Below, piece by piece: positions 53,783-62,715 of a stretch of DNA of 64,000 nucleotides (position 1 is its first letter; every line of letters begins with the position of its first letter). Source of the stretch: a virus. Its lineage: Duplodnaviria > Caudoviricetes. The notes below the pieces were generated by a model that saw only the letters and a program-made list of their open reading frames with translations, did not search any database and was not told the origin of the DNA. The translations under genes and the position numbers were made by a program. The DNA lies in the IMG/VR virus record IMGVR_UViG_3300011008_000040, positions 8,738-72,737 of that record, one strand, 5' to 3'.

Positions 53783-54202
53783 TTACTTTGATAGTTTTTC
53801 AGCAAGCTTAGAATGTGTTGGCCATACCGTTGTAATTACTCCATTATCTGGATTCACTGCAACGGTTGCTTTCTTTCCTATATATTGCTGGCTTGGCTCT
53901 CCCTGATCATTATACCTAACAGGTTTTATCCTAAGTGGATTTCTAAGAGCATTTACAATACTGCCATACTCCACTTTTCTCTCAGGAAGTTTTGACTGCT
54001 TATACGCATGCTCTGAAAATCTGGTAACCTTCGTGCCATTCTTAGTAGTGATAGACCCGCCTTCAACTATCTCATAAAACCGTTTCTTGGTATAATGACC
54101 TAATTCTTCTGGCGTTCGTCTTACTCCCCATTTCTGACCTTTAATACCATGATGAACCAAAACATCTGAGTTGTCAACTACTTTTCTTTTAACTACTACC
54201 AT
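53783..54202 (-). CDS. HHGxKGQxWGVRR-motif protein C with a putative RNase toxin C-terminus
   Basis: SEHA...ALRNPL...SQQYIGKKATVAVNPDNGVITTVWPT. Confidence 0.55.
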   Translation of the reverse strand: MVVVKRKVVDNSDVLVHHGIKGQKWGVRRTPEELGHYTKKRFYEIVEGGSITTKNGTKVTRFSEHAYKQSKLPERKVEYGSIVNALRNPLRIKPVRYNDQGEPSQQYIGKKATVAVNPDNGVITTVWPTHSKLAEKLSK

Positions 54203-54221
54203 TTTGAATTCCTCCGGCAAA

Positions 54222-55982
54222 TCAGTCAAACGAGTCCTTATTCAGCTTGTAAGCAACAAAGGCATCCAGCAAAGCAGCAACATTATCAATCTTCTCGCTA
54301 TGTCTCTTCTTGGATAGTTTGCGATTTCCGTTCGTATCCTGAATAGCAATAGCATTTCCCATCGCATATGTCATTAACTGCTCATCAAATACCAAAAGCC
54401 TGTCCTCTGCAAGCTTCTTCAGCTCACCAAGAGGAACAGACTCTGTCTTTGCTCCCTGTATTACCTTTTCAATACCATAAGCACCATTCTCAGTTTCCCA
54501 TCGTTCAACAAATGAACGGGCATTATACGGGTCAAACCCAAAACAACGAACGTCATACTGAGACTGAGCAATAAATGCATCCAGATCATCGTATACTTCC
54601 ATCAAATCCAAGATAGATCCTTCAAGAACTCGAAGACTCCCCTCTTTAATGAAGTCTTCATACTTTGTTCTAGTCGCCAACTGAAGCCGGCTGAATGTCA
54701 AAGACGAAATGTAGCTTCTGGCTTTAACTCCAAATCGACCTTTACTAAGTGGAAACAAAAATGTGAATGCGCAAAAGTCATCGCCCTGAGATAAGTCGGC
54801 GCCCATAGCGCATGGCAAATTCCAAAAGTCGCATCTCGAATGAGGAAGCGTTTCTTCATAAGTAAAGAAGTACGTTGATCCTTCCATCGGGATGTTAAAT
54901 CTCTTCGCTAAAATGTCATTTCGTGCAGCAGGAACCTTCTCGGCTCTTTGAACATCATTAAAGTAAGTCTCATAGCTAACGGTCTTTCCAAGATTTGGAT
55001 TAGCTTTTAACCAAATCATAGGATCTGTTTTTCCTAGCTCTATCTCATCAAGGCTATCAAGCTTATAATACCAAATCGACACATGCGGATTCAGATACTC
55101 ACCTTTCAAGATGTCCATAAGTTCCATCTTAATAGTGTCACCTATGCCATTTCGAACAGTTCCTTCTGAACTCGTAGCGACTATGATGTAGTCGTCAAGA
55201 CCACCTTTAGCAGCACCTTGAGCAATGGCATCAATCGGACTTTCTCTGATCTCGCAAGACAACCATTCATCTATCGTGGCGTACTTAACTCTCAAGCCCT
55301 GCAATTTACTAATACTCATAGGCCTGATTTCAAGCAGAGAGTTAGTAAGAAAGTTCTCAATACCATTCTTTGTACTGGCAAGCTTCTGCCTATTTGCTTT
55401 TGAACCAGTCGTATTTTGAAGTGAGCCCTCTGTTAAGAATTTATAGAACGGTCCTCGAGATCTTACAATAGCAGTTCTAATAGGAGAAAGAATCTCATCG
55501 GCCTGCTTCATTGTAGGAGCTGTCGTAATCTGATGAGTAGTCGAAGTATCGACATTCAATCCATAGTTCTGAATACAGGACCCATACATTGACTTTGCAG
55601 CAGCTCTTGGAATGATCAAATACTGAATATTGATCAGCCGTTTCTTAAACTGCTTGTTAACATACCGGCCGCCATGACCATCAGGAAATGGCTCGTACAC
55701 CGTTCTATCGACAAACTCATACCATCCATAAATTTCTTCAGCCCAAAGCTTAAATGTTTCCAAAAGATGCAGATCAGATCCGTCAGTAAGCGTCAACTCG
55801 TTTTCGCAAAACTCAATAAAACCTTCAACTGCCAAATCGTCATAGTAGTATCTAGGATCATCAATAAGAGCATCGATCCTACGCATCTCCATGGCTATAG
55901 TCTGGCATACCGGGATTTCCCCCCTCAAAACGGCCGCTCTAAACTCGCCATAATAACGTGGCGTTGCTGTGTTTGATAGCAT
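54222..55982 (-). CDS. terL: Terminase large subunit
   Basis: IPRAAAKS Walker A variant, ATIDEW, nuclease GADLSQGDD, KIDNVAALLD; start MLSNT. Confidence 0.92.
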   Translation of the reverse strand: MLSNTATPRYYGEFRAAVLRGEIPVCQTIAMEMRRIDALIDDPRYYYDDLAVEGFIEFCENELTLTDGSDLHLLETFKLWAEEIYGWYEFVDRTVYEPFPDGHGGRYVNKQFKKRLINIQYLIIPRAAAKSMYGSCIQNYGLNVDTSTTHQITTAPTMKQADEILSPIRTAIVRSRGPFYKFLTEGSLQNTTGSKANRQKLASTKNGIENFLTNSLLEIRPMSISKLQGLRVKYATIDEWLSCEIRESPIDAIAQGAAKGGLDDYIIVATSSEGTVRNGIGDTIKMELMDILKGEYLNPHVSIWYYKLDSLDEIELGKTDPMIWLKANPNLGKTVSYETYFNDVQRAEKVPAARNDILAKRFNIPMEGSTYFFTYEETLPHSRCDFWNLPCAMGADLSQGDDFCAFTFLFPLSKGRFGVKARSYISSLTFSRLQLATRTKYEDFIKEGSLRVLEGSILDLMEVYDDLDAFIAQSQYDVRCFGFDPYNARSFVERWETENGAYGIEKVIQGAKTESVPLGELKKLAEDRLLVFDEQLMTYAMGNAIAIQDTNGNRKLSKKRHSEKIDNVAALLDAFVAYKLNKDSFD

Positions 55983-55988
55983 TTCAAC

Positions 55989-56017
55989 TTGAACGACCTT
56001 TCTAAGTATGGTATGAT
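55989..56017 (+). promoter_or_regulatory. Sigma-A-type promoter of the counter-oriented moron
   Basis: TTGAAC-N17-TATGAT with an extended TG; AAGGAG RBS downstream. Confidence 0.65.
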
Positions 56018-56038
56018 AATACAAAGGAGTGTGATGCA

Positions 56039-56569
56039 ATGTATACTGTATCTGAGAAAAAGGCTCTTAAGCGACTCGGCATCCCCGATTTCCGTCATAT
56101 GACTAGCGAAAAGATTGTTGAATTCGTGAACATGACTCCGCATATGAATCCAGAAGTAGTTAAAGCAGCTATTGAGCAATTTCCTGAATTCAAAGACATG
56201 TCTATAGAAATGACAAATGCTCTGAAAGACATGGTCAATAAAGCATTTGACGCCAATAAAGAAAGCCAGCAGTATTTCTATGAATCATGCAATGGCATGT
56301 TGGAAACTCTTAGGGCTCAACTGGAAGATGAAGACATAGATGCTAATGAACGTAGCCAAATACGAGATAATATGATGCAAATCATTTCTTGGATGGCTAA
56401 AAAGGACAGCGAAAATAAGGAATTCATTGAACATGTTGCTGCATATACAGCAAAAGCAATTGTCGGAATCGCAGGTTTAGCAGTTGTCGCACTTGGAGCA
56501 GCATTCAAAGTGCCAATACAAAATCTGTTAAAGTCATCAAATGATGATGAAGACGAAGAAGATGAGTAA
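56039..56569 (+). CDS. Counter-oriented moron protein with a C-terminal transmembrane helix
   Basis: 176 aa, own promoter and RBS, acidic tail. Confidence 0.75.
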   Translation: MYTVSEKKALKRLGIPDFRHMTSEKIVEFVNMTPHMNPEVVKAAIEQFPEFKDMSIEMTNALKDMVNKAFDANKESQQYFYESCNGMLETLRAQLEDEDIDANERSQIRDNMMQIISWMAKKDSENKEFIEHVAAYTAKAIVGIAGLAVVALGAAFKVPIQNLLKSSNDDEDEEDE

Positions 56570-56570
56570 A

Positions 56571-57275
56571 TTACCTCTTATCTACCTTGTCTGACTTGTA
56601 AGCAACACGACCATCATCCCAAATACCACTTTTCACTCTATCCATATCGTAGCCCGGATCTGCGAGAGCTGTGTGAACACCATACTCTCCTCTCTTGGCT
56701 ACGAATTTTATTACCTTTCCAGAGGGAGAAGAAATATTGGCAACTTTTGTATTCATGATTTCAGCGAGCTTCTGGTTGTACTCATTCATGTACCGTCTGC
56801 CCTTACGCTCATTCTCGGATTTGATAGCATACTTCCGGTCTAACTGCTTAGTTTCTTTCCGCATCTCGCGCTGAGATTGTTTAAAAGCTTTATCGTGGAT
56901 CTTAGTAGCATTACGTCTGACCCACCGATCATCGGCTTTCTGGTAATGACGTTTCCCAGCTGGAGTAAGTGTGCCATCCGCATTTTGAAATCTTCGAACT
57001 CCCCATTTCTGACCACGAATACCATGATGCTGAAGTTCTCCGGTCTTAGGTATATACTTAGAAAACCTATTCTCTTCTCCAACAGTAAAGTCCTTAAAAC
57101 TCATTCCGTATTCTTTCATACGTTTGAGAATAGCCTTCGCCAATTCCTCTTCGTATTTAGGAGTAACATAGTTAAAGAATCGAATAGCCGATCTGACATG
57201 ATCTGCATCCGGCATAGGATACTTCTTCAGCTCAGGAATACCGTATTTCTTTTCATCTTCTATGCGAACTTCCAT
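56571..57275 (-). CDS. HHGxRGQKWGVRR-motif protein D (motif internal)
   Basis: N-terminal YGIPELKKYPMPD..HVRSAIRFF domain, then LQHHGIRGQKWGVRRFQNADG. Confidence 0.75.
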   Translation of the reverse strand: MEVRIEDEKKYGIPELKKYPMPDADHVRSAIRFFNYVTPKYEEELAKAILKRMKEYGMSFKDFTVGEENRFSKYIPKTGELQHHGIRGQKWGVRRFQNADGTLTPAGKRHYQKADDRWVRRNATKIHDKAFKQSQREMRKETKQLDRKYAIKSENERKGRRYMNEYNQKLAEIMNTKVANISSPSGKVIKFVAKRGEYGVHTALADPGYDMDRVKSGIWDDGRVAYKSDKVDKR

Positions 57276-57405
57276 TGCTGAGTTCCTCCTTTTCCGGATC
57301 ATCATTCTTGATCATAATAATAAACGCGCATGCAAATAGAATTGCTAGCTCTACAACATGAAGAATTAGTGAAACAATAACATGAATTAATGGTATTTCA
57401 ATCAT
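57253..57405 (-). CDS. Small membrane peptide, 50 aa (not in the ORF track)
   Basis: MIEIPLIHVIVSLILHVVELAILFACAFIIMI...; AGGTG RBS. Confidence 0.45.
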   Translation of the reverse strand: MIEIPLIHVIVSLILHVVELAILFACAFIIMIKNDDPEKEELSNGSSHRR

Positions 57406-57483
57406 ACTGCATTCACCTATTCTTTCTGTTTAAATCCGAGTTTCACGGTTGCCCAGGGGGTGGACAGTCGTGGTTTCCACATT

Positions 57484-57621
57484 TGGCGGTTGTAAAATAG
57501 AACGCAATCGGTTATCAATCACATTCCGCAGACTGAGCCGCTGCAGTTTTCTAAGCTTTGACGGTTATAAAACTACGACTGATACAGGTATCTGTCATTT
57601 GGAACTGAGCCGACGCAGTTT
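57484..57621. ncRNA. Two tandem copies of an unidentified pseudoknot-like RNA motif
   Basis: CGGTTRTAAAA...ACTGAGCCGNYGCAGTTT at 57484-57550 and 57560-57621. Confidence 0.55.
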
Positions 57622-57784
57622 GTATAAAAGTCCGTTCGTATATCAGCTTCAATGAGAGGCTTGAACGGCTCTGTCTGAATTTAGTTTACTTAATAATCGC
57701 TTCATCTCAGATTGTTAAGCATAGGAAATTGCGATTGCAATTACAATTAGCATAAATTCCATTCCTAGGATAAAACTACCAAAG

Positions 57785-58063
57785 TCAAAGTCTTTCATGT
57801 TTCTTTCCCAAAAGATACGTTTCCAAAATCTTTATACAGTCTCCATGTGATTGATATGCAGAACAAATTGTATTGAAAGCGTCATCAAATAATTCTTTAG
57901 GCACAACATCCTCTGCTGGAAGTTCCTTTATTGCATCAACAGGTACAGCATCAACACTACAAATACGATATCCACCTGTTTCATAAATCTTATCTTCAAA
58001 AATTTCTGAAAACTTTAGAACATCATTACGCTTAATGTATTCGTCAACCATCTTATACCTCAA
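57785..58063 (-). CDS. Hypothetical protein (YIKRxD family)
   Basis: MVDEYIKRNDVL...IKELPAEDVV. Confidence 0.65.
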   Translation of the reverse strand: MRYKMVDEYIKRNDVLKFSEIFEDKIYETGGYRICSVDAVPVDAIKELPAEDVVPKELFDDAFNTICSAYQSHGDCIKILETYLLGKKHERL

Positions 58064-58064
58064 A

Positions 58065-58253
58065 TTATTTCACCAAACACTTACCTAACCACTTTGGAAT
58101 CTCAAACAGCACTCTATATCTATATGCCAAGAAATACTGATTTGCTATTCCTACCGTGTGATGGTAAACATGTAAGTACTTCATCCACTTCATACACTTA
58201 CATCTGTTACATACTTTATATCGACATTGACCATTGGAATAGAAGCACTCCAA
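58065..58253 (-). CDS. Small Cys-rich protein
   Basis: 62 aa ORF. Confidence 0.45.
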   Translation of the reverse strand: MECFYSNGQCRYKVCNRCKCMKWMKYLHVYHHTVGIANQYFLAYRYRVLFEIPKWLGKCLVK

Positions 58254-58375
58254 ATAATATGCTGATTGTTAGTGTCATAAGCACAATGCGAACACCTGTA
58301 TCCTGTGACTATTTGACCGGCTACATAGTCCACATAATATGACATATAACAATTGCATTTCGGGCATCTTTCCAT
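58190..58375 (-). CDS. Small Zn-ribbon protein
   Basis: CPKC...CSHC; GAAAGGA RBS. Confidence 0.6.
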   Translation of the reverse strand: MERCPKCNCYMSYYVDYVAGQIVTGYRCSHCAYDTNNQHIIWSASIPMVNVDIKYVTDVSV

Positions 58376-58424
58376 GATTTGTCCTTTCGTCTACTTACAT
58401 TATCTTACGCAACTGCTTCGAATT

Positions 58425-58519
58425 ATCGGTTGTAAAACTCCCTAACCACACATCCGCAAACGTGTACAGCATTTTTGCACTGTTAAGTCAGGCAAGTCAA
58501 AACTGAGCCGATGCAGTTT
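58425..58519. ncRNA. Third copy of the pseudoknot-like RNA motif
   Basis: ATCGGTTGTAAAAC...AAACTGAGCCGATGCAGTTT. Confidence 0.55.
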
Positions 58520-58710
58520 GTTAAACGGAGAAACCGCCATCTGCACTTCCGCTAAAATTATAGCCAAGCCTTCTCCCAACAGCTATAATGTGCTCTATGC
58601 CATCCGATTTTAATAGCCTCGCACTAGGGCTTTGACAAGATAGAGCGTCCCTTAATAAATCGCCGTCAAGTGTGCTCGAAATTAAACCTGACGGAGGAGT
58701 TTTAATTAAA

Positions 58711-58866
58711 TTAACCGATCAGAGCAAGAAGAGCATTATACTGTTCTTCAGTAAGACGATTTGCTGCAAAATACACGTCGATCTTATCTTTCAGTTCTTC
58801 CAGCTTCTCAGTCTGACCGCTCTTCTTATAGCGATTAATCAGAGTAACACAAAGATTGTAAGTCAT
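58711..58866 (-). CDS. Small tail-fibre-associated protein, XkdX/CD1375-like, 51 aa (not in the ORF track)
   Basis: MTYNLC...KIDVYFAANRLTEEQYNALL; GGAGG RBS. Confidence 0.65.
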   Translation of the reverse strand: MTYNLCVTLINRYKKSGQTEKLEELKDKIDVYFAANRLTEEQYNALLALIG

Positions 58867-58868
58867 TT

Positions 58869-59204
58869 TTACTCCTCCATAAATAATTCAAGCATGCAGA
58901 TTCTTTCTTCATGATCTGCTGCTAATTCAAGTAAAAGGTCATCAAGATCTTCTTCTGGTTCTTCAGAAGGCTCTGTCCATGCAGCAGCCCGTGTAAACCA
59001 AGTATCAAAATTCTCAGCTGTAATCTCAGGACGAGTAAGGGTCTGCATATAAGCTTCATCACATACCCAATAAGTATATGTTTCGCCTTCTTCAGTGGCT
59101 TCTACCTCACGAATGTCCTGCCTAAGCCAAATGTCAAAAATATTCCCTCTCGCTTCAATATGAATCGGAGAAGGCTCCTGACTGGATTGCATTACGCAGC
59201 GCAT
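58869..59204 (-). CDS. Putative tail-fibre chaperone/assembly protein
   Basis: Acidic, ends DLLLELAADHEERICMLEL; typical gene downstream of a fibre. Confidence 0.55.
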   Translation of the reverse strand: MRCVMQSSQEPSPIHIEARGNIFDIWLRQDIREVEATEEGETYTYWVCDEAYMQTLTRPEITAENFDTWFTRAAAWTEPSEEPEEDLDDLLLELAADHEERICMLELFMEE

Positions 59205-60382
59205 AATAGTTGTCTCCTATCTTCTAAACTAATATTGTATGAAGCCATTTTGACTGTATACGCCACCAGTACAGACTGAATCTGCTTCTGGATTTTCAAA
59301 AATCTAATGAGCGCATGCTTCAAATAGCCATAGTAGGAAGTAACTCTTCTGGACATTTTCAAAGAGGATTTCTTTGTCCATATCCTGATGAAAGCTCTTC
59401 TCGCTCGTCTGAAGATTCTATGACGTACTTTGATTCTTCCATTTGCATGAATAACAAAGCCCATCATGTCGATTGCTTCTTTAGCATGATTTTTCACATG
59501 CCAGGTCTTAATAGAAATACCTAAAGAATCCAGCATATAATTCTCTACTCTTTTCATAGCTGTGAACAAATTCCTTCTATCATTACCGACAATCAGGAAG
59601 TCATCCATATAGAAAAGCGTGTGCAAAACTAAGCGAATTCTAGTCAGTCTTCTATACTTATGGAGGGTTTCAATAAAGCGATAAACATATGAAAGCATAT
59701 AATTGCATAAAAATTGACTCAGCAAACTACCAATTAAGAGTCCTACACCGTTTAAACCATGATACTTCAGCAGCTCTTCGACACACCAAAGGAGCTTCTT
59801 ATTCTTTCCAATATCTCTGCTCAGATGATCCATAATGATCTTATGCTGAAAACTGCCAAAGCAATTATTCACATCACCTTTGCAGAAATATTTGAAAGTT
59901 CCTTCCTTAACCCATTTCTGAATCTGTTTCGCACCGGAAACTTGACCTTTACCTTTAATGGACGCATACTGATGAAAGCAGATTTTCTTCCTCCAAAGTT
60001 CGTCCATACAGCCAACAACTACATGTTCCATAACTTGCTGCATAATAGACTCGAGAGCAATATTTCTAACTTTCCCGCTCATGCCATCTTTTCTTTTACT
60101 GATTTTAGGCTGCTCTAAATTCAGATTCTTATCCTCAAATCGCAAAGAAATATCGACGGCTATCAATCTAATTGCAACGTCAAGCTTGTCGCCAATAGTA
60201 TGTTCTTTTGCCATTGCACGAATTTCTTTCGGAGTATAGGAAGGAAACTTACAATATCCTGATACAAATGTAGAGTAATCTTTCCTGTCAATTTTGTCTA
60301 AAACGCAATCTCTGATAAATGGCTCAATAAATAAAATGTCCATCGGATTAACGTTCTTACAATATGTTTTCGCTTTACTCAC
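59192..60382 (-). CDS. DGR reverse transcriptase
   Basis: YFCKGDVNNCF, GLLIGSLLSQ, YMDD, DMMGF; adjacent TR/VR pair. Confidence 0.95.
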   Translation of the reverse strand: MSKAKTYCKNVNPMDILFIEPFIRDCVLDKIDRKDYSTFVSGYCKFPSYTPKEIRAMAKEHTIGDKLDVAIRLIAVDISLRFEDKNLNLEQPKISKRKDGMSGKVRNIALESIMQQVMEHVVVGCMDELWRKKICFHQYASIKGKGQVSGAKQIQKWVKEGTFKYFCKGDVNNCFGSFQHKIIMDHLSRDIGKNKKLLWCVEELLKYHGLNGVGLLIGSLLSQFLCNYMLSYVYRFIETLHKYRRLTRIRLVLHTLFYMDDFLIVGNDRRNLFTAMKRVENYMLDSLGISIKTWHVKNHAKEAIDMMGFVIHANGRIKVRHRIFRRARRAFIRIWTKKSSLKMSRRVTSYYGYLKHALIRFLKIQKQIQSVLVAYTVKMASYNISLEDRRQLLCAA

Positions 60383-60609
60383 CCTCCTAAAACAATAATC
60401 TTTTGAAATCTCGGAGACTTTCGGTCCTATCTACTAGCCTCATCCATGCCCATTCTATAAACCAACACGGTTACTACCCGGCATAAATCCCTCTGCCTCA
60501 AATCAAGCAGTTAGGCGTTTAATCGACACATTTTCGCCGCAGCGAGGAATTGCATTGCGAAGCTCGGGTCAGAGCCATCCCTATTTGTGTCAAAAATTTA
60601 TTTCATAAT

Positions 60610-60725
60610 CCGACCACCGATGTTCCAGTTCGTGTTGCCCAGATTGTTGTTACCATTAGCACAAGACAAACCAGCATTAGCATTGTTGTTCAAGTTGCCG
60701 TAAGCTTGCCACTCACGTGAGCCAC
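60610..60725 (-). repeat. DGR template repeat (TR)
   Basis: 116 bp, 12 AAY codons in the VR frame, non-coding; matches the VR except at adenines. Confidence 0.95.
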
Positions 60726-60796
60726 CGATCGGTGCAAATGCAATCCCAAAAAGTAAACTAAATTTAATTAACTATTTTGATCTATAATAAGGTAAA

Positions 60797-60815
60797 GGGC
60801 TGCGCCCCTCTGGGC
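60797..60815 (-). promoter_or_regulatory. GC-rich hairpin just downstream of the target gene (DGR homing element candidate)
   Basis: Minus strand GCCC-AGAG-GGGC-GCA-GCCC. Confidence 0.5.
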
Positions 60816-60819
60816 TTGC

Positions 60820-62715
60820 TTACGCCGCCCATTCACCCCGATTACCGGTAACCGAAAGCCGACCACCGATGTTCCAGCGCGTGTAGCCCAGATAGAGGTC
60901 ACCAACAGCACAAGACAAACCAGCATAAGCACCGTAGTTCAAGGGGCCGTAAGCTAGCCACTCACGTGAGCCACTAGTTCCTGCTTTTTCAATATAGCAA
61001 CTATCTCTTGTAAGCGTAGTGGAACTACCGCCAACCATGCTCGGATACATAACTTCCGGAAGATTTGGATCGTGTCCAAGTCTAGCTACACTCATCCATG
61101 CATTTGCAGACATACCAGTATTCGGGAATCCATAACTTGCCTGTACATAATCAGATGTAATACTCTCGGCAATCTTTGAAGCATCTCTGCAAACTGCAGC
61201 TCGTTCAACAGATACTCCATCAACTGTAGCATAGTTAAGAATTGCATCACCGATAACTGCATAACAGCCAACCAGAATCTCAATACCCTGAAGACGTACC
61301 GGGTATTTTGAACTTGATGGATTAATACCACCGTCATTGCCAAGACAGTCATCAGTTGAACCACTAAACCACGGCATTGTCAGAACATGATCAGATGTGG
61401 TAGTATTAAATGTCGTACCGCCATTGTCAATGTTAAGAGCCGTGTAATTTGTACCGCCAACATTTACTGTCTCGATAGAAGTAATTTTCTTCCTATCAAC
61501 TGTCTGAGTAGCAGCTCTTGCCGTTCCACCAAATGAAATTGTAGAACCAACCACAAAATTTGCTCCCTGAGCCGTCGTAACAAGAATTCTCTCAACTCCG
61601 GTCTCAGCAACTGCAACGGCATAATCATAGTTGTAGCTAACACATCCTGCCAGAACAGAGTCAGAATCGAGTCGACCGTACTTAAGGTACAGCATGATTT
61701 TAAGAAATGCATCGTCGGCAGTTGTATAACCGCAATACTGATTGCTCCATGCAGTTCTAACTCCAGATCTCTGACCATTATGTGAAACGGTATAAACTAA
61801 AGGAGCCTGACCAGAACAGCAAGTATATCCAGGACCGAAGAAGTACTTTGTATGAACAACCCAGGACCGAACAGAATTATCAGTTAACCGTACAGCTTCA
61901 GGAAGCGGATAATAACCATAAGCATTCTCAATATCGGTATACATATATGTATATCCACCATCAGCATCATCTGAATATTTCAGCCAGCCTGTAGCCTGAA
62001 GAACGCCAACAATTTTTGTGGGGTCATTCCGAACAAAGTTTCCGCAAATACCATCAATTGCTGTAATATGCGGTTCACCATCACTATCAAGGTAAACATT
62101 GCAGTCTACGATTGCAAACAAAGGAAGCTCTTCATAGTCATCTGTATTCTTTACAGCATTAGTTGAAGGAGTACAAGTCAGTCCTGCATTATCGCCGATC
62201 TTTGTTCCCGTCGATATAGTATTAGTAGAAGGATTAGCAAACTTCACACCACCGGTCCAACCAGTACGAGCATACTTATACCAAGTATCACAGAGAGAAG
62301 TGACATCAGACATCGCATTACAGCCATGCTCTGAAAAGAATCTCTTCATTGCTGATTTATAGCTAGAGCCTTCTATCATGACTGGAATTAATCTGGCATC
62401 AATCGCATCTCCGGTTGCTTTTGCATCTGCCGCCATACCAGAAGTGCTCAAAGAAGTATCTGTACCAAGCTGGATCATGGACTCAATAGATTGGACAATA
62501 TCATTCTTTCTCTCTTCAAGACTATCTATTGATTCCTGAGCACCAGCTACAATACCCTCTGCACGATTCTCCTGACCGTCAAGAAAATTAGACACATCGC
62601 TCATGATTTGGTCAGCATCTTCAGGAAGCGTCGTGCTAAATATTGCTGAACCTCTATAGGTTCCTGTCAGTGGATCTTTAATTTTCCACGCATCTTTTTT
62701 CATAGTAATTGACAT
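60820..62715 (-). CDS. DGR target: tail-fibre/adhesin-like protein with a C-type lectin-like C-terminus
   Basis: TDTSLSTSGMAADAKATGDAI fibre motif; C-terminal VR ending G.R. Confidence 0.88.
   Translation of the reverse strand: MSITMKKDAWKIKDPLTGTYRGSAIFSTTLPEDADQIMSDVSNFLDGQENRAEGIVAGAQESIDSLEERKNDIVQSIESMIQLGTDTSLSTSGMAADAKATGDAIDARLIPVMIEGSSYKSAMKRFFSEHGCNAMSDVTSLCDTWYKYARTGWTGGVKFANPSTNTISTGTKIGDNAGLTCTPSTNAVKNTDDYEELPLFAIVDCNVYLDSDGEPHITAIDGICGNFVRNDPTKIVGVLQATGWLKYSDDADGGYTYMYTDIENAYGYYPLPEAVRLTDNSVRSWVVHTKYFFGPGYTCCSGQAPLVYTVSHNGQRSGVRTAWSNQYCGYTTADDAFLKIMLYLKYGRLDSDSVLAGCVSYNYDYAVAVAETGVERILVTTAQGANFVVGSTISFGGTARAATQTVDRKKITSIETVNVGGTNYTALNIDNGGTTFNTTTSDHVLTMPWFSGSTDDCLGNDGGINPSSSKYPVRLQGIEILVGCYAVIGDAILNYATVDGVSVERAAVCRDASKIAESITSDYVQASYGFPNTGMSANAWMSVARLGHDPNLPEVMYPSMVGGSSTTLTRDSCYIEKAGTSGSREWLAYGPLNYGAYAGLSCAVGDLYLGYTRWNIGGRLSVTGNRGEWAA
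60859..60974 (-). repeat. DGR variable repeat (VR)
   Basis: 16 mismatches to TR, all at TR adenines; encodes GSREWLAYG...WNIGGR. Confidence 0.95.

Follow-up and report, generated by a model that had tools for sequence, protein, structure and literature searches.

Covariation supports an uncatalogued family of small H-type RNA pseudoknots upstream of late genes and tRNAs in gut phages

Introduction

The preQ1-I and preQ1-II aptamers (RF00522, RF01054) are very small H-type pseudoknots in which a 5-bp first stem and a short first loop are combined with an A-rich 3' loop beside the second stem; they are placed in 5' leaders, sometimes in tandem, and preQ1-II may carry an optional hairpin embedded in its third loop. 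Triplex-stabilised pseudoknots, such as the luteoviral frameshift knots and the exonuclease-resistant RNAs (xrRNAs), resist helicases and exonucleases. The HK022 put sites (two stem-loops, ~70 nt) and the Bacillus EAR element (~120 nt, intercistronic and pseudoknotted) act regardless of the sequence that follows them. Theta ribozymes form a nested double pseudoknot (P1, P1.1, P2, and P3) with a cleavage site that abuts the tRNA 3' end (PMC10879173), and coremin (xrRNA-C) is built of hairpins of 3 and 4 bp, the first with a YGAD loop, and a conserved 10-nt spacer (PMC6546385). Here, we analyse a two-block RNA element that has features in common with all of these RNAs and is carried in three copies on the minus strand of a 64-kb stretch (hereafter, the window) of the 72.7-kb virus record IMGVR_UViG_3300011008_000040, a member of the Caudoviricetes. 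The element represents a new RNA family whose structural kind is already known; the family is absent from the catalogue and the literature that we searched, and we regard it as a real finding. Each copy is almost certainly a self-contained, sense-strand H-type pseudoknot, and the uncatalogued family to which it belongs is, with the same high confidence, specific to phages of gut and rumen Firmicutes.

Structure and covariation of the element

In the three window copies, the element reads AAACUGC-NN-CGGCUCAGU, followed 25-70 nt further on by UUUUAYAACCG-NN. The pattern AACTGCNNCGGCTCAGT matched the minus strand without mismatch at 58518-58502, 57620-57604, and 57548-57532; when up to three mismatches were allowed, it gave 5 matches against 0.85 expected by chance, a count of 5 being reached in 0 of 100 shuffles. 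The 3' block (TTTTAYAACCG in the DNA) trails every copy, at 58437-58427, 57572-57562, and 57497-57487. A covariance model of the motif run over the whole window recovered these three copies only (57.2, 57.0, and 47.0 bits; runner-up, 7.7 bits), and the complete virus record held no further ones. The perfect pattern matches and the model scores confirm the original prediction, made from the letters of the window alone, that three minus-strand copies share this consensus.

All pairings in the window copies are given on the minus strand, with the two stems denoted S1 and S2 and the loops L1 and L3. Copy A (58425..58519; 57.2 bits) forms S1 between AACUG 58518-58514 and CAGUU 58505-58501 and a 5-bp S2 between AUCGG 58512-58508 and CCGAU 58429-58425, with C 58513 as L1 and CU 58507-58506 as the junction. 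Its L3 (58500-58430) holds a long hairpin insert and has the 3' end UUUUACAA; the part of L3 before ACAA (58500-58434, 67 nt) has a folding energy of -20.8 kcal/mol. In copy B (57560..57621; 57.0 bits), S1 joins 57620-57616 to 57607-57603, L1 is C 57615, and S2 pairs GUCGG 57614-57610 with CCGUC 57564-57560, leaving one U.U mismatch; the L3 insert reads CCAA-hairpin-AGUUUUAUAA. Copy C (57485..57550; 47.0 bits) stands in tandem to copy B across a spacer of ~9 nt, with an ACUG/CAGU S1 (57547-57544 with 57535-57532) whose outer A.C is unpaired, and an S2 of 4 bp plus an A.C apposition, (A)GCGG 57542-57538 with CCGC(C) 57489-57485. The outer S2 pairs therefore differ yet match among the copies (AU/AU; GU/UC with one U.U; AG/CC with one A.C). 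The pairings named in advance (AUCGG/CCGAU in copy A, GCGG/CCGC in copy C, and a single mismatch in copy B) were all found as claimed.

A structural alignment of 73 model-aligned instances from 69 sources (L-numbers below denote IMG/VR loci from pattern scans, and G-numbers denote phage genome records) placed S1 at A4-U21, A5-U20, C6-G19, U7-A18, and G8-C17 (AACUG/CAGUU, 5 bp) and S2 at N10-N117, N11-N116, C12-G115, G13-C114, and G14-C113 (NNCGG/CCGNN, 5 bp). L1 is a single C9 in 71 of 72 instances, L3 ends in U107 U108 A109 Y110 A111 A112 directly before the 3' strand of S2, and the base following S2 is mostly A (56/72). In this alignment, 93% of the cells were paired, and two-sided changes occurred in 7 of the 11 tested pairs (22 cells), strong evidence for the covariation that the original prediction had proposed. 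No shuffle out of 500 matched the covariation score, the percentage paired, or the two-sided change counts, and 3 out of 500 reached the observed count of further pair types; when the 3' partner was displaced by 1-3 columns, pairing fell to 21-44%. The first search pattern fixed most of S1 and the CGG/CCG core, and later scans left each helix free. The S1-free search returned compensatory AGCUG/CAGCU in L127 and GACUG/CAGUC in L149, and the S2-free search returned a change from G-C to A-U at 13-114 (L195, L202) and from C-G to U-A at 12-115 (L193). The three inner S1 pairs and G14-C113 never varied, so that the invariant core surrounds the helical junction.

S1 and S2 cross and both helices covary, which is the arrangement of an H-type pseudoknot. 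The loop lengths fit groove crossing, with the 1-nt L1 spanning the 5-bp S2 (which may stack to 7 layers) and an L3 of at least 6 nt spanning the 5-bp S1; with UUAYAA placed ahead of the 3' strand of S2, L3 is well positioned to contact the invariant end of S1 in the minor groove. Of the geometry proposed beforehand, the 1-nt L1 and the long L3 stand, whereas the supposed 0-nt junction is in fact 2 nt (N-U): position 15 is C in 67 instances, G in 4, and A in 1, and U16 is changed to C once. Position 15 opposes the nearly fixed A112, and its variation to G and A, together with one C.C case among its C instances, is at odds with the 'invariant C-A apposition' described from the window. The extra G.U pairs once suggested for the plus strand also come down to position 15 opposite A112. 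Because the changes to G or A at position 15 go uncompensated, we treat the two positions as forming no pair on either strand. A lengthening of S2 to 7 bp through C.A and U-A, as a 12-layer mimic of the tRNA acceptor/T-arm, was dropped as the principal reading on account of this uncompensated C/G/A variation and of the single U16 to C change.

Minimal forms of the element total 33-36 nt (e.g., L161, L094, L008, and L156). In these forms, L3 without its terminal ACAA is 6-12 nt; most often this part is 34 nt and consists of a ~10-bp hairpin between short linkers. Hairpin subtypes of L3 turn up again in unrelated phages, and one of them keeps the apex GGUCUAUAUGGCU on a covarying lower stem (L137, L144, L165, L173, L174, L199, and L202). 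The window copies each carry a different insert subtype, nearest to L049/L007/L081 in copy A, to L064/L147 in copy B, and to L043 in copy C. In a divergent upstream copy of L147, a hairpin is inserted into L1.

The active strand is the minus, gene-sense strand, a choice that the original prediction had left uncertain. This choice rests on the tolerance of G.U over A.C in S2 cells (6 vs 2), on orientation, and on groove geometry. The element is co-oriented with the following ribosome-binding site (RBS) or tRNA in all instances whose flanks were read. In H-type pseudoknots, a 1-nt loop is able to cross the deep groove and unable to cross the shallow one; in the sense strand, L1 spans the deep groove of S2, an ideal fit in steric terms, and the opposite strand would need a shallow-groove crossing. 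In one bovine-gut metatranscriptome, contigs of a relative covered 57645-58379 and 58559-58832 and not the motif copies, and such contigs cannot show RNA ends.

Distribution among phages

When IMG/VR was scanned, the 5' block matched 118 loci. About half of them were chance matches in coding sequence that were removed by requiring the 3' block; the remaining half carried the full element, AAACUGCGGCGGCUCAGUU-(variable)-UUACAACCGCC. Three more scans, each leaving one structural part unspecified, added instances, and L058, L074, L172, and L210-L212 were discarded as chance matches. The element is present in at least 70 distinct sequences, comprising uncultured phages and phage-like contigs of metagenome-assembled genomes (MAGs). 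A blastn search of the region and of a minimal instance against 50,697 deposited phage genomes returned nothing real, and the covariance model found no match in phages A511 and KVP40. The exact 19-mer was searched in 185,579 prokaryote species, each represented by one genome, and gave 13 matches, of which 6 were true; all 6 stood in phage-like contexts, on contigs assigned by binning to Oscillospiraceae, Selenomonadaceae, Ructibacterium, or uncultured Clostridia or on a contig of an unclassified MAG. Two of 151 Oscillospiraceae genomes carried the element; three weak matches in genomes of this family lay inside coding sequence and were rejected as chance. The public runs containing the window phage or its relatives were gut and bovine-gut metagenomes.

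Eleven phage genome records of 40-155 kb, the window's own included, were searched for the element; nine of them are rated at least 98% complete and two are partial. In 10 of the 11, the element is confined to one locus, and G010 adds a weak 13-bit match elsewhere. Nine records hold a single copy, G010 holds two in tandem at its main locus, and the window phage holds three within 1.04 kb; tandem copies are arranged head to tail, 3-12 nt apart. Copy number is polymorphic, since DNA contigs of close relatives (runs X2 and X3) show deletion and duplication joints at the copies, namely skips from 57623 to 58525 (901 nt) and from 57482 to 57562 (79 nt) and a duplication joint from 57624 back to 57487 (138 nt). 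Loss of the region of the 92-aa open reading frame (ORF), with a skip from 57675 to 58210, is a further difference among relatives, and the small ORFs between the motif copies behave like a swappable cassette.

Genomic placement

The element lies 4-14 nt ahead of a tRNA 5' end in ~10 lineages and, where it occurs inside tRNA arrays, 24-30 nt past the preceding tRNA. In many instances it stands 3-25 nt ahead of a Shine-Dalgarno (SD) sequence, and it precedes late genes by 3-60 nt; the gap from the upstream stop codon ranges from 0 to ~340 nt. Ten downstream proteins were tested, and seven proved to be endolysins, which belong to three unrelated catalytic types (CHAP, Phage_lysozyme2, and Amidase_2) and mostly carry PG_binding_1; the other three are two metallophosphatases and one glycosyltransferase. 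Elsewhere, the next genes encode scaffold and major capsid proteins, a head-tail adaptor, or terminase, and the preceding gene often encodes a large tail-fibre-like protein. No promoter was found at a fixed distance from the element. Terminator-like hairpins within 150 nt were present upstream in 14 and downstream in 18 of 73 instances, neither side being enriched. At L050 and L033, the knot is followed by a hairpin with a U-tract and then by the RBS, which leaves no space for a promoter.

At L046 and L080, the pseudoknot is followed immediately by a small hairpin (CCUC-NUG-GAGG) that encloses the SD of the endolysin gene (GGAGG). Such a hairpin may provide local translational control that is separate from the knot.

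Comparison with described RNAs

In Rfam 15, no family matched the window at gathering thresholds, and relaxing the cut-off to E<=10 produced no match that overlapped the motif; the motif was likewise free of matches in 13 related loci. Searches of the literature by sequence string and by topic returned nothing relevant to the element. The absence of an Rfam match and the presence of covariation together support the proposal that this is an uncatalogued H-type phage pseudoknot RNA.

A close likeness in architecture is to the preQ1 aptamers, with which the element shares the 5-bp first stem, the short L1, the A-rich 3' loop, the 5' leader placement, and the occasional tandem copies, and, with preQ1-II, the optional hairpin within L3. 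The element differs from them in its conserved nucleotides, in an SD outside the knot (3-25 nt beyond it), and in its downstream genes, which are phage late genes and tRNAs (endolysins, capsid, and tRNAs) rather than queuosine genes. The models of both preQ1 classes gave no match at E<=10, and both were rejected. With luteovirus knots of the beet western yellows virus type and with coremin, the element has in common a compact knot, a C in an L1 of 1-2 nt, an ACAA-type end of L3, and a near-invariant stem, and with triplex-stabilised viral knots and xrRNAs it shares extreme conservation across unrelated viruses as well as tandem copies. Unlike luteoviral knots, it lies outside the coding frame and has no slippery site before it. 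Coremin was rejected because the first stem of the element, of 5 bp, closes an 8-nt loop whose partner lies downstream, and the two short hairpins, the YGAD loop, and the conserved 10-nt spacer are absent.

Theta ribozymes resemble the element in being small pseudoknotted RNAs beside phage tRNA genes in gut Caudoviricetes, and in having a C and adenines in the junction segment that precedes the last 3' strand. The element, however, has no P3, L3, or P1.1 of the theta kind and sits 4-14 nt upstream of tRNA 5' ends. A ribozyme like that of hepatitis delta virus (HDV) or theta, a class marked by a catalytic C in J4/2 besides its nested double pseudoknot, was rejected, given that only two helices fit into 33-36 nt, that an 8-nt loop cannot hold both P2 and P3, and that no Rfam HDV model matched; the pistol ribozyme was rejected for want of P2 and P3. 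HK022 put and Bacillus EAR are like the element in that a single, self-contained, conserved sense-strand RNA stands in or at the head of a long operon, although the element has no sequence or model similarity to either. Type III toxin-antitoxin RNAs (ToxI, CptI, or the abiF type), which as repeat arrays or motifs immediately precede their toxin genes in defence loci of bacteria or prophages, were set aside in view of the late phage genes downstream, the near absence from bacterial genomes, and the usual single copies. The 5' block also resembles a tRNA 5' end with its D arm, UUACAA resembles the anticodon loop of tRNA-Val, and one true tRNA (L185) matched the pattern. We treat this likeness as coincidence because the covarying register is that of the pseudoknot and not of a cloverleaf; ARAGORN recognised no tRNA in the window, nor any that fell on the motif in 50 loci.

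Possible functions

The best single reading of function, which we put forward tentatively, is a self-contained, nuclease-resistant 5' boundary or stabiliser. We infer that the knot is autonomous from the lack of an expression platform, the occurrence before both tRNAs and ORFs, the head-to-tail copies, and the tie to the downstream 5' edge. The C of L1, the ACAA-ending L3, and the invariant junction-proximal S1 pairs make up a combination characteristic of triplex-braced, unwinding-resistant knots. The knot itself would then be the working part, compact and braced by a triplex, and would bound the following transcription unit (endolysin, capsid or scaffold, terminase, or tRNA) at its 5' edge. 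Decay running 5' to 3' (e.g., by RNase J) from a start upstream in a long late transcript would be halted at the knot, and the downstream message or tRNA precursor would outlast the rest of the transcript; tandem copies, as in the window, would add redundancy. Such a boundary would be analogous to known Bacillus 5' stabilisers and viral xrRNAs. Several observations weigh against it. Ten of the 11 genome records have one locus, unlike the multi-copy punctuation expected of a general stabiliser, and a tRNA would have little obvious benefit from a shield in its 5' leader, which RNase P cuts away. That 19 + 8 nt are nearly invariant in phages with different hosts may instead be a sign that the element binds a conserved host machine or forms a catalytic core.

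It is conceivable, though doubtful, that this knot serves as the catalytic or sensing core in a new class of RNA, either among the smallest natural self-cleaving ribozymes or a ~35-nt switch that binds a ligand or RNA polymerase (RNAP) and times lysis and late functions in gut Firmicutes phages. As a regulatory RNA, it would control late genes by binding a conserved partner, which might be RNAP in an antitermination akin to that of put and EAR, a phage or host protein, or a small ligand. This is a rather unlikely explanation, even though it accommodates the extreme sequence conservation among phages whose bins belong to different Firmicutes families, the confinement to one locus per genome, within late operons or at their head, the tandem copies, the tie to endolysins of three unrelated folds, the succession of knot, hairpin with U-tract, and RBS at L050 and L033, and the preQ1-like architecture of a 5-bp first stem, short L1, A-rich L3, and embedded hairpin. 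It is opposed by the want of a conserved expression platform, the SD never lying within the knot; by terminators that are no more enriched downstream (18/73) than upstream (14/73); by the tRNA-preceding instances, which rule out translational control; and by downstream genes without a common metabolic theme and the absence of an identified co-occurring protein. A new class of small self-cleaving ribozyme, cutting late polycistronic RNA or a tRNA precursor at or beside the knot and thereby freeing the downstream unit, is unlikely. The conservation is ribozyme-like, with an invariant junction core (three S1 pairs, the C of L1, the junction U, and UUAYAA) and a freely varying optional hairpin, and the context is phage-only, intergenic, and in the sense orientation, at one locus per genome, with no common downstream gene family; small ribozymes, including theta/HDV-like ones, are moreover known beside gut-phage tRNAs (PMC10879173). 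Nevertheless, the minimal form of 33-36 nt leaves ~10 unpaired conserved nucleotides, no Rfam ribozyme model matches, and the topology is without the P3/L3/P1.1 of HDV-like ribozymes and the P2/P3 of pistol.

We consider it distinctly improbable that the element acts in trans as a stable small RNA, freed by flanking cuts of RNase P, RNase Z, or other kinds, for example as a sponge or decoy directed at a nuclease, toxin, or defence protein of the host. Processing of tRNA arrays would excise a free RNA of 70-95 nt at L008 and L141, abiF-motif RNAs lie nearby (35.1 bits at L085:51-87, and a weak one in the window), and the variable copy number among close relatives suggests selection on dosage. 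Against this, the element lacks its own promoter and terminator, many instances are followed by an RBS within 3-25 nt, and bacterial genomes are essentially free of it except in phage-like contigs (6 true matches in 185,579 species; 2 of 151 Oscillospiraceae). This near-absence also leads us to conclude that the element does not copy a host antitoxin RNA. Very little probability attaches to a DNA-level element, such as a protein site, a promoter, or a packaging or recombination site, with the pairing as a by-product. The position upstream of the terminase genes in the window and the recombination joints at the copies in related genomes would agree with it, but the spacing between the blocks varies from ~6 to ~90 nt, G.U pairs are tolerated, the genome position differs between phages, and no sigma-70-like promoter stands at a fixed distance. 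One protein, in addition, could not read the copies as half-sites, because within this one genome the NN/NN pairs of the three copies differ from each other and are nevertheless matched.

The family comprises ~27 near-invariant nucleotides across otherwise unrelated phages of 30-155 kb and marks one special place in each genome, most often where the lysis cassette begins. If the boundary reading is true, the knot would offer a portable mRNA stabiliser for Gram-positive hosts, and phages, like eukaryotic RNA viruses, would shape RNA decay with knots. A ribozyme or switch function would make it a new class at the lower limit of size, through which the timing of lysis in gut phages could be approached. 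At 33-36 nt, it is short enough for biochemical and structural work, and its tiny size, strong conservation, and telling place in phage genomes make it worth pursuing at the bench.

Other features of the window and related loci

On the minus strand of the window, the order is tail protein, template repeat (TR), reverse transcriptase (RT), a 111-aa ORF, copy A, two small ORFs, a hairpin, copies B and C, a 50-aa ORF, a 244-aa protein, and terminase, and all coordinates that follow refer to this strand. The 3' end of the gene for the 631-aa tail-type protein (60820-62715) is the variable repeat (VR; 60856-60974), which forms a 119-nt repeat pair with the TR (60607-60725); all TR/VR differences within it fall on TR adenines. 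With the RT (59192-60382), these parts constitute a complete diversity-generating retroelement (DGR) at 59192-62715, in which no Avd-like gene was recognised. A linkage of the motif to the DGR was rejected, the DGR not being seen at the other loci examined. The 111-aa ORF (58869-59204) has no family match. A 61-aa ORF with a zinc-ribbon-like CxxC...CxxC pattern (58190..58375) starts 50 nt past copy A and was assigned to no confident family, and the 50-aa ORF (57253..57405) starts ~80 nt past copy C. The large terminase (54222-56039; phrog_9, 1.3e-103; PF20441) is 72-74% identical in protein sequence to those of the Streptomyces phages Scarif and RosaAsantewaa, though the window belongs to a gut phage of 38% GC. 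The proteins flanking it, the 244-aa protein (56571-57305; below-threshold matches to DUF7211 and DUF6582) and that encoded at 53783-54229, both match DUF7211 (one at 29.8 bits, above threshold, and one at 24.5, below) and share PHROGs of unknown function; neither could be identified as a small terminase.

Directly upstream of copy B and outside the pseudoknot lies a hairpin (57631..57668), followed by ACUUUUAUAC. It looks terminator-like, having been flagged by a relaxed terminator scan 6 nt upstream of copy B, and it bears a weak likeness to the abiF motif (RF03085; 17.3 bits vs a gathering threshold of 37, E 7.4), which is the RNA antitoxin of AbiF toxins (PMC12373285). RNAs with much stronger matches to the abiF motif also occur beside the pseudoknot in the same late intergenic regions of other phages, at L085:51-87, L204:1856-1892, and L204:1938-1974, with 35.1, 34.5, and 31.6 bits, just below gathering; the first of these lies 9 nt upstream of the knot. 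These RNAs may be phage anti-Abi decoys, as no abiF gene is adjacent.

Downstream of copy C, the window carries a second conserved block, ACUGUCCACCCCCUGGGCAACCGUGAAACUCGG (57436..57468). Written as ACUGUCCACCNNCUGGGCAACCGUGANAGUCGG, this block is also found in other phages (L165, L204, L205/L207, L206, and L095), at times without the pseudoknot, and it sometimes trails a third conserved block, GGGNCUGNGGUUG...GCAACGAUAAAA, that stands in the place of the pseudoknot. The sequence of the second block is kept, and no compensatory change was seen in it. Two orphan Rfam motifs occur at related loci: a 6A RNA (RF02925, 56.6 bits) at L023:2365-2415 lies ~170 nt upstream of the pseudoknot, and a gut-2 RNA (RF02990, 47.7 bits) is present at L047:688-735 on a related phage contig.

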